Assembly (NCBI GenBank): GCA_019894855.1
Contig: JAGXNS010000002.1
Location: 8,858-72,857, forward strand
Length of the DNA stretch: 64,000 nt
Direction: 5' to 3'
Source: Promethearchaeota archaeon
Lineage (GTDB): Archaea > Asgardarchaeota > Lokiarchaeia > Sigyniarchaeales > SOKP01
Positions 8,450-29,840 of this stretch are shown in pieces (within the stretch, counting starts at the first letter, position 1; the number at the start of each line of letters is the position of its first letter). Under the pieces are notes generated by a model. It saw only the letters and a program-made list of their open reading frames with translations. It made no database searches and was not told where the DNA came from. The position numbers and the translations under genes are program-made.

Positions 8450-10257
8450 TACATGCCCCACCACGGGTGTTGCATCGATCTTTGGAGGATAATATATTCT
8501 CGTAAAGCTTGTTTTTGATCCACGGTTAATTCATCTAGGAATTTTCCCATGATCTGTCTCACGTGAGATTCTGGTACATTAACGAACAGAGTTTCATCTC
8601 TATCGATATCTCTCCCTATCTCAATGCCACGAATAGATATAGCTACTTCGTCATCTTTTACAGCTTTTTCTAAAGTTTTACCTTTATCCTGAATTTGGTG
8701 AACTCTTTTCGCTTTCTTTCCGTCAGCAGTGATTAACGTTACTTTAGGATATAAAGTACCCGCTTCCACATGTACTCCAAATACTGCGGGATCTGAATTT
8801 CTAAATATAAAATCGGGCATCATTCTTAGTTTAGCAGGTAAAACTAATTCGCTTAATCCTTTTGCGGTCTCCTCTGCTTTTCGTACCTCAGCATATTCTA
8901 TATAATCTTCCAACAGTCTATAAATGACATTATTCGTGAAAATTCTTATATTGTCTGTTATAGCTTGTTCTTTTGCATCGGGTAGAATAGCCACATTAAA
9001 TCCTAAAACGGTTGCTGAATATGGATCGAGACTTTTAACTAAATTTGCATTCATAATATCCTCTTTTTTAATCGGACCCACATCGGCAATACTTATCTTA
9101 ACACCATTCTTTGTGAAATGATTTTCTAACGCTTCAAGAGAACCTAATGTATCTGCTTTTAACACTACGCCTGCTTTGTCTGTTTTAATTCGAATACTTT
9201 CTACTTCTGATTCAATTTCGTTGTATACAGTTTCTTCTTGTGAAGGATCACCAATTCCTCTAAATGGAGATCCAGCAACAACATCTTCGATATTAGGAGC
9301 AAGAATCTTAATTCCAGCTGCTGCACTTACTATATCTACAGAATCAAATTTTTGTCTAGGATCTCTTATCTCATCTAAAGGTTTCGGCATGAGTAAAGCT
9401 CTTACTTTCGACTTAATAGGTTTTTCTAAACCGCCAACAATGAACTCTTCGCCTTTCTTGATTATTCCATCGTATATTAAGACATCCATAGTTACTGCTT
9501 GACCTTTTTCTTTCTTCACCTCCAAAACTACGCCTTTGGCGGGTCCTTCACTAAATTTCAAGTTTTCAGTTAAAAATTGTTGCACCAGTCCCATTAAAAC
9601 CATCAATAAAGTTGATATTCCCTCGCCTGTTTTGGCGCTCGTAGGTACGATTGCCACTTTTTTAGTAAAATCTTTTATTTTATCGTAACGATCGATTCCT
9701 GTAAAACCTTCCTGTAAGAAATCTATTCCTATTTGAATTAATTTTTCGTCAAGAAAATCTCTAACATGAGGTTTTTGTTTATTATATGAATCTAAAAAAT
9801 CAGCATCTTTAATAGATTTCCACCCTGTTATCCTATCGATTTTATTAGCAGCAATAACAAATGGCACTTTCCGCTCGCGTAATATTCTAACGGATTCCCA
9901 CGTAATTGGCATGTTCCCGGCTGTTACATCGATAACCAATATTGCTATATCTGCAACAGCCCCCCCTCTTTTACGCAAGTTCATAAAGGCGGCGTGTCCT
10001 GGAGTATCAATAATTAATATGCCAGGTAATTGAATTTCTTTTTCAGCAAATTCTTGCTTTGATTTCTTTAAGAAATCTTTTATATCTTTAGTGGGAAAAT
10101 AAGAAGCTCCAATATGTTGTGTAATACCAGCAGCTTCTCTTTGTTGCACTACGGTTCCTCGAATATAATCTAACAGAGAAGTTTTACCATGATCAATATG
10201 TCCTAAAATCGAAGCAATAGGAGCCCTTATAATTTTTTTATCGGTTTCAGCTGTCAA
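8449..10257 (-). CDS. infB: Translation initiation factor aIF5B (IF-2)
   Basis: GHIDHGKT, GITQHIGA, DTPGH, NKID, KADTLGSLEAL; TTG start. Confidence 0.96.
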   Translation of the reverse strand: MTAETDKKIIRAPIASILGHIDHGKTSLLDYIRGTVVQQREAAGITQHIGASYFPTKDIKDFLKKSKQEFAEKEIQLPGILIIDTPGHAAFMNLRKRGGAVADIAILVIDVTAGNMPITWESVRILRERKVPFVIAANKIDRITGWKSIKDADFLDSYNKQKPHVRDFLDEKLIQIGIDFLQEGFTGIDRYDKIKDFTKKVAIVPTSAKTGEGISTLLMVLMGLVQQFLTENLKFSEGPAKGVVLEVKKEKGQAVTMDVLIYDGIIKKGEEFIVGGLEKPIKSKVRALLMPKPLDEIRDPRQKFDSVDIVSAAAGIKILAPNIEDVVAGSPFRGIGDPSQEETVYNEIESEVESIRIKTDKAGVVLKADTLGSLEALENHFTKNGVKISIADVGPIKKEDIMNANLVKSLDPYSATVLGFNVAILPDAKEQAITDNIRIFTNNVIYRLLEDYIEYAEVRKAEETAKGLSELVLPAKLRMMPDFIFRNSDPAVFGVHVEAGTLYPKVTLITADGKKAKRVHQIQDKGKTLEKAVKDDEVAISIRGIEIGRDIDRDETLFVNVPESHVRQIMGKFLDELTVDQKQALREYIILQRSMQHPWWGM

Positions 10258-26862: not shown

Positions 26863-27339
26863 TTATTTGGTATGAATCTCATACTCTAAAATTTCTCTCA
26901 TCCTTTGTTGTAACTCAGGTCTGATAGCTGACATTCCGTACGTTTTAACACCGCCTAATTTTTTCTGGATTTCCTTAGCGCTTAAGGCACCAGGTAGATC
27001 TTGCTTATTTGCGATTGCTATGATTTTAGTTCCTAAACTACGTTCAAACCTATTATAGATTTCCTTTGTTTGCTCTACATTTTTTTCAGTAGAATCACAC
27101 ACGATCACTGCTAAACCAGCTCCTCTGAGAAAATCCTGCCACATAAACTTAAACCTATTCTGGCCTCCTAAATCCCAAACTGAACAATTTTGACCGTTCA
27201 AGATGGAATCTTCCACTTCTAGACCTACTGTAGGAGTTCTTTCCTCGGAGACCTCTCTCCCCTGCAACAAAGACAAAAGCGATGATTTTCCAACAGACTG
27301 TTCCCCTATCAAACATATCTTCTTCTTGGTTGTTAACAA
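26863..27339 (-). CDS. Arf/Sar-like small GTPase
   Basis: GEQSVGKS, PTVG, WDLGGQ.RF..MW, ANKQDL, SA. Confidence 0.88.
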   Translation of the reverse strand: MLTTKKKICLIGEQSVGKSSLLSLLQGREVSEERTPTVGLEVEDSILNGQNCSVWDLGGQNRFKFMWQDFLRGAGLAVIVCDSTEKNVEQTKEIYNRFERSLGTKIIAIANKQDLPGALSAKEIQKKLGGVKTYGMSAIRPELQQRMREILEYEIHTK

Positions 27340-27522
27340 AATTAACCCTTTCTAATTACGATTTATAATAATTAGAAAAGGCAAATAATCTTACAAAAAT
27401 GAAAATAATATTCACATAACATGAAATTATAAAACTAATAGAAATTGGATTACCAGAAAAAAGCAAATAAAAATAAATTAAAATTAAATATTAATTAAAA
27501 AAATCAAAGAAAGATTGTTTCT

Positions 27523-27567
27523 TTATTCTTCCCCTGTCTCAAGGTCTTTTACAATTCCCACGCATGC
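27523..27567 (-). repeat. Synonymously recoded duplicate of the EF-1alpha 3' end (candidate att site or displaced gene end)
   Basis: Encodes (A)CVGIVKDLETGEE*, identical to the last 13 aa of tuf (28536-28577), with only synonymous differences. Confidence 0.85.
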
Positions 27568-28535
27568 TGGTGATATTCTATTTGGTTGAAGATTCTTCTC
27601 CTGAAGAGATCGAGTCAAACAATTTTAGCTGTTTTCTCACCTGATTTTCATCTCGTATACTTTGAAATTTTCGAAATTATTGATTTTTGTTAGGTAAATA
27701 TCTCCACATAAATTTTTCTCATAAAAAAACTTTTAAATATAAAGTTAATAATAATCTTTTTAGACAATAACTATCCTTCAAGACAAGGGACGCAGCCTTA
27801 TCTTGTTTACTAGGCCAATGAGACCGTTTGGAGTTGGTGGATACTCAGATGTGGTCGGGTGGGAGTGGCACTTTTCGCATAATCCGTAACCCTCGTAAAA
27901 TTTAAATATGCTTGTCGAGGTTTAATACTTGTGAAGAAGAAAAGATCAATTTTAATCAATAATCCACAACTGCGTAAAATTCGCAATAATTTACGCTTAT
28001 TGCTCATGAGATGGGCAAGTAGAGAGTGGAATTTACTTAACGACAAAGAAACTAATTTAAGCTATGATGAAGAGGGAAGACCAAGGCATCCAAGCACTTA
28101 TTCTGAAAAAGAAAAGAGCGAACGGATTAGATTAAGTAGTCAAATGGATAAGAACAAAGAAATAGTCAAAAATTCCATTTGTGTATGTTATCGGTGTCCT
28201 GCAACAGGCAAAAACATGACTTACAATCCAATCGAAAAAGCGTGGTTTTGCTTCCAATGCTACGAAGAGATGAAGCAATGGACCGCGAAAAAGAAGACAG
28301 GGATATCCGTAAGATTCCCTTGAACATCCTTTTTATTTTTTAAAATTTTTTCTAGTTGAAATTATTAAATCGCCTTAATCTCATATTTCTTAATCGAGGC
28401 GTTCCTATTTTTTACATGGTTGATATAGAATTCCTAAAACCTCAAAATGTAAGTTTACATTAGGCTTTAATTAATTATAATAAAAACTAAAAAAATAGTA
28501 AAATAAAATTAAAAATAAAAGCAGAATTTTATATT
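27568..28535. mobile_element. Putative small integrated island or remnant at the tuf 3' end
   Basis: Bounded by the two tuf-end copies; contains an orphan Cys-rich ORF and a GC-rich non-coding tract; no integrase seen. Confidence 0.5.
27931..28323 (+). CDS. Hypothetical protein with putative Zn-binding CxCxxC...CxxC motif
   Basis: GAGGT SD before GTG; ICVCYRC...WFCFQC. Confidence 0.7.
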   Translation: MKKKRSILINNPQLRKIRNNLRLLLMRWASREWNLLNDKETNLSYDEEGRPRHPSTYSEKEKSERIRLSSQMDKNKEIVKNSICVCYRCPATGKNMTYNPIEKAWFCFQCYEEMKQWTAKKKTGISVRFP

Positions 28536-29840
28536 TTATTCTTCTCCTGTTTCTAAATCCTTCACAATACCTACACATGAAGTTCTAGACATATCCCTTA
28601 CCGCAAATCTTCCAAGTTCCGGAAACTCATGATAGCGTTCTAAACAAAGTTTCTTGATCGGTTGCAATTTAACTAAAGCTGCTTCGTTCTTCTTGAGAAA
28701 TTTCGGATTGTCCTCGATTACGGCACCAGTCTTCTGATCTAACTTTTTGTTTAACTCAATAAACTTGGCGGCTACTTGAGCTGTATGAGCATGAACTACA
28801 GGAGTGTATCCTTGAGCAATTGCTGTTGGATGCCAAATAACAATTATTTGTCCTGTCCAGTTCCCCTTTGGAGTGATTACAGTTGGAGGATCCTTCGGAT
28901 GGCCCATGACATCGCCACGACCAACATCCTCCATAGTAATTCCTCTAATGCTAAATCCGATGTTATCACCAGGTTCGGCAGAGTCTTGTTCTTCGTGATG
29001 CATTTCGATGCTTCTTATTTCGCCTTGAAAGCCAGTTGGCATGATAACAATTTTATCATTCTTCTTCAATACGCCAGTTTCTACTCTTCCAACAGGGACA
29101 ACTCCAGTACCTTTAATACTGTATGCGTCTTGAATTGGAACTCGTAGTGGCTTACCAGTAGGTTTTGGAGGCATATCAAAGGAATCAATCGCTTCAATTA
29201 AGGTTGGACCGTCGTACCATGAAAGTTTATCGCTTTTTTCCGTCAAATTCTCTGCTTTAATACCACTAACAGGGACAAACGGAATTTTTTTGACCGGAAA
29301 ACCGATATTTTTTAGGAGATCAGAGACAGCATCTTTTACTTCATTATAACGCGCCTCGCTATAATCATAGGCGTCTGCTTTATTAACAGCAACGACCAAT
29401 TGCTTAACACCTAAAGTTTGGGCTAAATAAGCGTGCTCTCGAGTTTGACCATTGGCTGCAATACCTACTTCCATTTCTCCTTTCTTTCCAGAAACGACTA
29501 AAATTGCGGCGTCAGCTTGAGAGGCTCCAGTGATCATGTTCTTTACGAAATCAGCATGGCCAGGAGCGTCAATAATGGTGAAGTATTTTTTACTCGTTTC
29601 GAACTTTCGGAATGCTAAATCAATAGTAATACCACGTGCTCGCTCTTCTTTTAACCTGTCAAAGACATAAGCGTATGACCAAGATTCTCTATCGTTTTCT
29701 TTTGCTAATTTTTCAAGTTCTCGTGCTTCTCTGTCGGTTACTGCCCCAGTTTTGATGAGCATTGCACCCATCATGGTGGATTTGCCGTGATCTATATGAC
29801 CTATTATAACAAGATTTAAATGTTCTTTATCAGTTGGCAT
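28536..29840 (-). CDS. tuf: Translation elongation factor aEF-1alpha
   Basis: GHIDHGKST, RGITID, DAPGH, NKAD, LGRFAVRDM. Confidence 0.98.
   Translation of the reverse strand: MPTDKEHLNLVIIGHIDHGKSTMMGAMLIKTGAVTDREARELEKLAKENDRESWSYAYVFDRLKEERARGITIDLAFRKFETSKKYFTIIDAPGHADFVKNMITGASQADAAILVVSGKKGEMEVGIAANGQTREHAYLAQTLGVKQLVVAVNKADAYDYSEARYNEVKDAVSDLLKNIGFPVKKIPFVPVSGIKAENLTEKSDKLSWYDGPTLIEAIDSFDMPPKPTGKPLRVPIQDAYSIKGTGVVPVGRVETGVLKKNDKIVIMPTGFQGEIRSIEMHHEEQDSAEPGDNIGFSIRGITMEDVGRGDVMGHPKDPPTVITPKGNWTGQIIVIWHPTAIAQGYTPVVHAHTAQVAAKFIELNKKLDQKTGAVIEDNPKFLKKNEAALVKLQPIKKLCLERYHEFPELGRFAVRDMSRTSCVGIVKDLETGEE

Follow-up and report, generated by a model that had tools for sequence, protein, structure and literature searches.

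In transformable bacteria, homology-facilitated illegitimate recombination brings in foreign DNA of which one end is anchored by homology, and the same process has been proposed for the C-terminal displacement seen at toxin loci (as outlined in PMC5361080 and PMC3240628). At rhs, contact-dependent inhibition (CDI) and type VI secretion system (T6SS) effector loci, a conserved 5' body receives a new 3' end together with a downstream gene, the old end is left stranded, and such events recur at the same loci; the new tip is a different toxin with its immunity gene, and diversity is selected (according to parts of PMC5361080). Archaeal mobile elements enter the 3'-distal parts of protein genes, including that of elongation factor 2 (EF-2), and restore the reading frame (as described in passages of PMC6563490). 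Those found at the ends of translation-factor genes have an integrase or casposase and short repeats at both borders, either attachment (att) sites or target-site duplications (TSD), and relatives have empty as well as occupied sites. Free-standing homing endonuclease genes co-convert the flanking gene sequence, and there are mitochondrial cases with duplicated gene ends. Here we describe a displaced gene end in Promethearchaeota archaeon (Lokiarchaeia, Sigyniarchaeales; assembly GCA_019894855.1), within a window of 64,000 nt that covers positions 8,858 to 72,857 of contig JAGXNS010000002.1. The gene is tuf, encoding the archaeal elongation factor 1alpha (aEF-1alpha). Its last 13 codons are found a second time downstream of the gene, on the far side of an insert that carries a small gene, called ORF130 here.

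The tuf open reading frame (ORF; 28536..29840, minus strand) encodes 434 amino acids with the Pfam domains GTP_EFTU, D2, D3 and eEF1A_C, and its product ends in CVGIVKDLETGEE. The last 13 codons and the stop codon form tail A (28536-28577), and a second set of 13 codons and a stop on the same strand forms tail B (27523-27564). The two 42-nt tails had 10 base differences in 9 codons, all 10 of them synonymous. Of the 126 single-base changes that the tail allows, 28 are synonymous, which puts the chance of ten in ten at about 3e-7, and the peptide was kept in none of 300,000 simulated sets of ten random substitutions. A first-pass annotation of this DNA had reported that 9 of the 13 sense codons differ, all synonymously, and that each tail is followed by a T-rich tract of its own; both statements were borne out by direct comparison and reading of the two tails. 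The longest identical run between them was 10 nt, stop codon included, and the repeat that flanks the insert is 42 nt long and just 76% identical.

The rarity of such a pair was examined in the archaeon's own assembly (2.54 Mb, 170 contigs). A plain score of left against right flanks was dropped because 25 of 150 random positions in this genome reached 55 via paralogs and repeats. As this score was unusable as a statistic, a criterion of stop-terminated, isolated tails was therefore adopted. The scan for stop-terminated peptide duplicates of at least 8 amino acids within 4 kb gave 8 pairs. The tuf pair was the sole isolated tail, with no further upstream matches and open frames of 437 versus 34 amino acids, which sets the baseline at 1 per 2.5 Mb; the other 7 were paralog pairs, repeats, or open frames of at most 25 amino acids. 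The pair was also found in independent assemblies. A 1254-nt contig built from run X5 matched 27463-28716 with 0 differences and spans both junctions of the insert. From run X7, which belongs to another study, two contigs (27421-27636 and 28529-28713) matched with 0 differences and span tail A and the right junction. Gaps in the contig cover of the stretch in runs X6, X7 and X18 do not count as evidence that the DNA is absent. Because zero-difference contigs from the runs of two studies bridge the junctions, an assembly chimera is excluded. A decayed tandem tuf paralog, the other scenario that the first-pass annotation had named as fatal to its claim, is excluded as well, and no tuf-like sequence was found between the tails. 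The duplication of the tail is confirmed as a real and significant observation.

We then asked which of the two tails is the original one by comparison with other genomes of the genus, to which the handles G001 and so on refer. The gene order up146, tuf, Arf-like GTPase is conserved within the genus, and the GTPase follows tuf in 27 other genomes. In the window, this neighbor is an Arf/Roc-like small GTPase (26863..27339, minus strand; Pfam Arf, 2.6e-19). Both genes were located in 28 genomes; the spacer between them was 162-188 nt, corresponding to an empty site, in 9 of the 28 and 229-3905 nt in the rest, with 1196 nt at this locus. The part of the spacer next to the GTPase gene (27340..27522, minus strand) is of the native type: the 183-192 nt that follow tail B were 93% identical to the complete spacers (183-188 nt) of G008 and G011. 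Tail B and the DNA downstream of it aligned with the tuf tail and spacer of G002 at 84.8% identity over 269 nt, beginning exactly at the TGC codon for Cys. The initial 28 nt of tail B were identical to the tuf genes of G002 and G004, and the whole tail differed from that of G002 by 2 bases and a 6-nt indel, with no amino-acid change. Because tail B is contiguous with the native spacer seen at empty sites in relatives, it is the displaced original host end, and tail A arrived with the insert. The event is recent, since tail B has no amino-acid change and just 2 base differences from G002.

The left border of the foreign DNA was found inside tuf. Over coding nt 1-1083 (28758..29840), tuf was 93.6% identical to that of G002, the closest relative, with 69 evenly spread mismatches (6.4%). 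The following 65 nt (coding nt 1084-1148; 28693..28757) had no mismatch at all. From there to the stop codon (coding nt 1149-1305; 28536..28692), a tract that includes tail A, there were about 40 mismatches (~25%), and identity to G002 fell to 74.0% over nt 1149-1302. The best identity of this tract among the 26 tuf genes compared was 79.5% (G034). Counted by codon from nt 1126 on, 27 differences from G002 were synonymous and 6 nonsynonymous. The ratio of 3' to 5' divergence for the G000-G002 pair was 4.08, rank 2 of 325 pairs, whereas pairs of close relatives had no such drop (5' versus 3' identity of 91.5 versus 90.9% for G002-G004 and 94.5 versus 89.6% for G004-G008). About 157 nt of the tuf coding sequence are therefore foreign besides the insert, and one border lies in a homologous tract with a donor-type mosaic left behind. 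Since the mismatch rate changes from 6.4% to zero and then to ~25% along tuf, we infer that the left border arose by homologous crossover within tuf, with the CATG that the two tails have in common lying 115-180 nt further downstream.

The insert itself has a mixed content. Downstream of tail A lie 212 nt (28324..28535, minus strand) that represent the foreign 3' untranslated region (UTR) and spacer brought along with it, with a T-rich, terminator-like tract. The first ~58 nt align weakly with the tuf-arf spacers of relatives, and the remainder had no match in the genus. Next comes ORF130 (27931..28323, plus strand), which encodes 130 amino acids and is convergent with tuf; a TTTAAATA box (27901..27908, plus strand), 23-30 nt before its start, is archaeal TATA-like and may have that role. 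The segment between 27670 and 27900, about 230 nt and somewhat richer in G+C, had no Rfam match, a fold energy no better than that of shuffles, and no significant match in the 42 genus genomes. For the G+C-richer part at 27780-27935, folding was no better than shuffles on both strands, and a search of 27000-29000 against Rfam at E<=1 gave nothing. There is no tRNA within the window. The last 105 positions (27565..27669, minus strand) consist of a fragment of ligA, the gene for NAD-dependent DNA ligase, comprising its 5' UTR and first codons; over 84 nt it had 89% identity with the beginning of ligA in G008, which encodes 647 aa. The fragment has an internal deletion of ~45 nt and is cut after the EYHQH codons, and its second piece matches the EYHQH codons of G005 ligA. 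ORF130 was the only ORF of the insert with relatives; ORF and Pfam scans revealed no integrase, recombinase or remnant of one and no other ORF above 78 aa, and the insert had no transposase and no inverted repeat at its borders.

At the right junction (27564..27565), direct reading shows the ligA sequence ending in CAGCAT joined onto GCGTGGG of tuf codon 422 (Cys422), out of frame. The possible microhomology is 1-3 nt, depending on the original host codon 421. This border is thus one without homology and with a microhomology of a few nucleotides. Because the donor DNA with ORF130 and ligA has no homologous counterpart in the host, the right border is an illegitimate join and not an att site. 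ligA was not found elsewhere in the own assembly, which is 84% complete. Its distribution in the genus is patchy: of 41 other genomes, 17 have it, G008 in three copies. None of 20 ligA loci had an ORF130 gene next to it. A 12-nt run, CAGGAGAAGAAT, is common to the ligA fragment (27592-27603) and tail A (28538-28549), with one mismatch in tail B; it was rejected as a border signal because it coincides with no border.

Together, these borders suggest that the second tail is the scar of one recombination that grafted DNA of a diverged relative onto the end of tuf, by homologous crossover within the gene on one side and by illegitimate joining on the other. We give this reading a probability of roughly 55%. 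The incoming DNA would have contained a 3' end of tuf and the 3' UTR belonging to it, the convergent ORF130 and the start of a ligase gene, in that order. On the left, homologous exchange would have taken place within the 65 nt of perfect identity in tuf. On the right, the incoming DNA would have been joined illegitimately, through 1-3 nt of microhomology, to host codon 422. The last 157 nt of tuf would thereby have been swapped for a synonymous foreign version and about 970 nt inserted, and the host's own last 42 nt would have been stranded as a nonfunctional orphan. The mosaic tract, the two borders, the empty sites and the identity of the pieces are established by the sequences; that this was a single event, the donor gene order and the route of DNA entry are the parts that we infer. 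Such a route would resemble homology-facilitated illegitimate recombination, or the C-terminal displacement at rhs, CDI and T6SS loci.

The comparison with homology-facilitated illegitimate recombination extends to the homology-anchored end (here the 65 nt in tuf plus the donor-type tract), the microhomology join at the other end and the nonhomologous cargo in between. The present case differs in its archaeal host and in that the gene which provides the anchor also contains the illegitimate join, which leaves the old end in place as a duplicate. Its cargo is also recurrent (the ORF130 family), whereas that of the bacterial process is arbitrary. As in C-terminal displacement, an orphan old 3' end, tail B, lies downstream of the replaced end. 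In contrast to the toxin loci, the new tip has no different toxin domain and no cognate immunity gene: the new tip of this housekeeping protein consists of the identical 13 residues, and the companion gene is conserved.

Displaced tails were also present at other tuf genes. In G016, a second GRTVCVGIVKD occurs 100 nt past the stop codon, with 9 of 11 codons changed, all synonymously. In G007, a second G.RT.SVGIVKNT followed by a stop lies ahead of an unrelated membrane-protein gene, and G023 has an in-frame duplication of 8 aa, in which VGIVKDLE is followed directly by VGIVKDVVKTE and the stop codon. These tails had different cargo or none. The displaced tail starts at Gly417 in G016 and at about the same place in G007, compared with Cys422 here. 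Two further pairs have 3' replacements without a scar, with identities over nt 1-1083 and nt 1149-1302 of 97.1 versus 76.8% for G011-G034 and 92.1 versus 76.8% for G061-G014 (loci L051, L044, L043 and L042).

Relatives of ORF130 were found next to displaced ends of other conserved genes as well. Behind the LSm gene of G002, an ORF130 relative is located between the gene end and a displaced copy of 38 aa plus stop, with 5 amino-acid changes in the orphan. The order at this locus is host 1-867, the ORF124 segment, 238-411 and 788-1114, with an 80-nt direct repeat. The LSm gene of G016 has an ORF130 relative with a remnant tail; that of G017 has an ORF130 relative behind it, and a second tail was not detected there. 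At the actin gene of G007, an ORF130 relative again lies between the gene end and a displaced copy. Two ORF130 copies are located behind the actin gene of G010, with just a weak remnant tail, and the actin gene of G035 has a displaced tail without ORF130. Further displaced tails that flank ORF130 relatives were found at a zinc-ribbon gene of G016 (12 aa plus stop), at L152 (about 80 aa plus stop) and, in a looser form, at L158. After quantification over 38 ORF130 loci, of which the genus supplied 28, metagenomes 8 and genome_contigs 2 (the G016 LSm remnant is a locus outside the 38), displaced tails were counted at 4 of the 38 under a strict definition, with both copies stop-terminated, and at 6 of the 38 when the looser L011 and L158 were included. 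ORF130 was convergent with the host gene, its 5' side toward the orphan tail at a distance of 18-366 nt, in 4 of 5 clear cases.

The LSm-linked ORF130 copies of G002, G016 and G017 were mutual best matches (56-76% identity), and 3 of 30 LSm loci were occupied. Because these copies are mutually closest although so few LSm loci hold one, the cassette moves between species yet stays behind the same gene, as transfer together with the flanking gene would predict. ORF130 is probably not a chance passenger; its family probably moves, time and again, together with a conserved gene's 3' end that acts as a homology arm.

Several points weigh against a one-step event of the kind proposed for tuf. To our knowledge, homology-facilitated illegitimate recombination is demonstrated in bacteria only and has no description in archaea, although no search aimed at it was made, and we know of no DNA-uptake route here. 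Among the 42 genus genomes, none was found that could be the donor, with ORF130 and ligA next to tuf in this order. Two features are left unexplained by one step, namely the internal deletion of the ligA fragment and the 5' side of ORF130 facing the displaced tail, which hints at a defined cassette end. The mosaic signal at the actin genes of G007 and G010 was weaker than in tuf. The count of recurrent tails rests on loci picked for holding ORF130, and its baseline comes from one genome. Finally, the LSm locus of G002 is accounted for better by one crossover of a circular molecule than by a one-ended event with linear DNA. A circular intermediate is a serious rival because that locus has exactly the order that the single crossover of a circle predicts. 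At tuf, a small circle with ORF130 and a captured tuf 3' fragment would have entered by a Campbell-type crossover in tuf and so duplicated the fragment, and a later deletion would have taken away most of the distal copy and fused the ligA remnant to codon 422. The ligA fragment shows that deletions occurred at the locus, and direct repeats flank other ORF130 loci (L023, 41 nt and perfect; L029 and L030). However, the extra deletion needed at tuf would have to be at least 115 nt long and to end exactly where the intact tail B begins. The contigs, the level of data used here, revealed neither a circle junction nor an extrachromosomal copy, 2.9 million viral contigs held no confirmed ORF130 relative, and the cassettes have no conserved ends in common. 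We regard a circle at tuf as possible but doubtful. The first-pass annotation had proposed another origin, the remnant of an integrase-driven, site-specific element directed at the 3' end of tuf and equipped with a replacement tail. Part of this account agrees with our results: one tail would be the displaced host end and the other would have come in, both under purifying selection; the empty sites for which it suggested looking, with tuf directly followed by the Arf-like GTPase, exist in 9 of the 28 genomes with gaps of 162-188 nt; and there is indeed no integrase in the insert by ORF list and Pfam. The tails also have their 10-nt run with the stop codon in common, and the archaeal elements that enter EF-2 and other genes offer a precedent. 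The proposed recombination at a very short core does not stand, given the crossover 115-180 nt upstream of the CATG and the join to ligA. The similarity of the two tails does stop just upstream of this CATG, as had been noted, but the foreign DNA begins inside tuf, and no identical core coincides with its borders (tract start 28692-28757). The right border is a ligA fragment and not an element end, and the displaced tails of G016 and G007 begin at or near codon 417 instead of 422. An ORF130 relative or an integrase was found in none of the 27 other tuf-arf spacers, whose cargo is unrelated, and no larger element bounded by the same tails turned up. With no recombinase, borders off the repeat, varied tail starts and no related element at other tuf genes, an integrase-type element is unlikely. 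Compared with the archaeal elements at translation-factor gene ends, this locus is alike in its reconstituted frame and in the empty and occupied sites of relatives; it differs in having neither a recombinase of their kind nor their repeats, and in a left border formed by a long homologous tract. It does not resemble an insertion sequence or transposon either, having no transposase, no terminal inverted repeats, and only the imperfect 42-nt repeat (76%) at its flanks.

Homing-like spread was considered as well. In this case, ORF130 would be, or recruit, a nuclease that cuts ORF130-free alleles, and repair would co-convert the adjoining gene end. The locus has in common with free-standing homing endonuclease genes a small, selfish-looking gene beside a conserved one, a donor-type tract alongside, and one lineage bound to one locus across species, here the ORF130 lineage behind LSm in 3 non-sister genomes. 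ORF130 looks selfish in being multicopy, not found in the 24 genomes searched outside the genus and present on many short contigs. On the other hand, it has no nuclease family or signature, lacks conserved His and acidic residues, and matched no known structure. Both flanks would moreover be homologous in homing, so that the old tail and the ligA fragment would not remain, whereas the old tail and foreign fragments are kept here. We judge this explanation improbable. An artefact or a local origin, whether a chimera of two strains, a decayed tandem tuf paralog or a diverged duplication in situ, could be imagined because contigs of several relatives break at tuf residues 412-419, a region that is evidently hard to assemble. 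The contigs without differences that bridge both junctions in two studies, the contiguity of tail B with the native spacer, the divergence that reaches upstream of the duplicated part, the lack of decay in tail B and the lack of anything tuf-like between the tails make such an origin extremely improbable.

If the scar arose by crossover in tuf and illegitimate joining, the locus shows, base by base, the uptake by an Asgard archaeon of DNA from a diverged relative, with a conserved essential gene as landing pad for one homologous and one illegitimate join. In this sense, the scar at tuf is fresh and of a kind already known, but its setting is new; what comes on top is the recurrent link of such scars to one family of small genes. 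In a literature search at the level of article listings, no report of insertion into the EF-1alpha gene of Asgard archaea came up, and the term "elongation factor" is absent from PMC8813620. The recurrence at tuf, actin and LSm points to frequent recombination between species that is anchored in the most conserved genes. Such gene flow bears on the accessory gene content and the mosaic marker genes of these genomes. The mosaic 3' ends of tuf and actin matter for the use of these genes as phylogenetic markers, and caution is needed with tuf because the G011/G034 and G061/G014 pairs show replacements without a scar. A more far-reaching idea, which we put forward tentatively and consider rather doubtful, is that ORF130 cassettes form a new kind of mobile cassette without a recombinase in Promethearchaeota. 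They would carry the 3' end of a highly conserved gene (such as tuf, actin or LSm) as a homology arm, swap the gene end for a synonymous foreign copy, leave the old tail behind and spread between species, and the zinc-ribbon protein, in some genomes the partner of a protein of 1400-2500 aa, may promote the exchange.

ORF130 belongs to a family of 412 clusters in public data (50% identity, E<=1e-3), found mostly on short contigs. This small zinc-ribbon gene is a specific candidate for a new gene family that is selfish or associated with recombination. Members occurred in 22 of the 36 same-genus genomes searched, with up to 10 matches per genome. The TTTAAATA box was found upstream of many of them. 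The protein combines a basic N terminus (MKKKRTI...LRKIRNNLR) with a helical hairpin and, at the C terminus, a CxxC...CxxC zinc ribbon (AlphaFold2 model, mean predicted local distance difference test, pLDDT, of 90). The GTG start used here yields VKKKRSIL, in line with the MKKKRTI start of the family. Invariant residues are K3, K4, R18, R22, S82, I83, four Cys, M96, P100 and W105, with no conserved catalytic-type residues among those of the family. No Pfam match was obtained, so there is no recognizable nuclease domain (LAGLIDADG, GIY-YIG, HNH or PD-(D/E)xK). Foldseek gave nothing in the PDB at E<=0.001, and the ESM Atlas was uninformative. The same was true of a weak match to a family of unknown function in PHROGs (1.3e-4) and of a weak match to PDC-S64 in PADLOC (5.5e-5) confined to the zinc-ribbon part. 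Ten longer relatives contained no informative fused domain.

Some other members of the family have conspicuous neighbors. Genes for proteins of 1416 aa (L190 3126..7376, G021), 2468 aa (L191 89..7495, G017) and 548 aa (L192 6200..7846, G028) each immediately precede an ORF130-family gene in the same orientation. The three proteins had no Pfam family; the 1416- and 2468-aa proteins are homologous (BLASTP, 4e-54), and the 548-aa protein has C-terminal motifs in common with them by eye. The large upstream protein and ORF130 may constitute a two-gene module, and no displaced tails flank the modules at L190-L192. At L192 8420..8692 (G028:C17), the ORF130-family gene is convergent with a gene that looks, by eye and from its translation, like that of ribosomal protein uS11, with their ends 69 nt apart; this would be a further neighbor of high conservation, and no second tail was found there. 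In the own genome, a second, partial gene of the family (63% over 30 aa) lies at the very end of contig C122 (G000:C122:15352-15441; L005 1501-1617), downstream of a gene for a 425-aa coiled-coil protein. The first own-genome matches turned out to be chance similarities: that on C52 is a DUF35-like zinc ribbon, that on C92 a GTPase gene. A contig from run X18, which belongs to a third study, joins 28339 to 28539, so that an ORF130 copy of ~95% identity lies 199 nt nearer a tuf end that is likewise of this foreign type. The contig represents either a variant or a donor-like lineage.

The tuf-arf spacers of relatives (L110-L120) were a hotspot of gene-content variation. Their ORFs were read by eye from the translations and not scanned against Pfam. 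By this reading, they seem to include ABC-type substrate-binding proteins (in tandem in G019), a 465-aa membrane protein (G030 and G015), an Fe-S protein (G012), and small membrane or other unassigned proteins (G061, G007 and G026). Contigs G001:C33, G006:C85, G024:C1 and G035:C2 end inside tuf at residues 412-419, near the junction described here, which suggests strain heterogeneity at this place in those populations. In three other genomes, the Lys codon of the tuf P-loop is split, between GHIDHG and KST, by a 33-nt intervening sequence with in-frame TAA and TAG (L061, ~1556-1588, in G029; L062 in G019; and G018). Its local fold was no better than that of shuffles. Excision of the 33 nt restores GKSTMM, and the sequence may be a mini-intron in a protein-coding gene.

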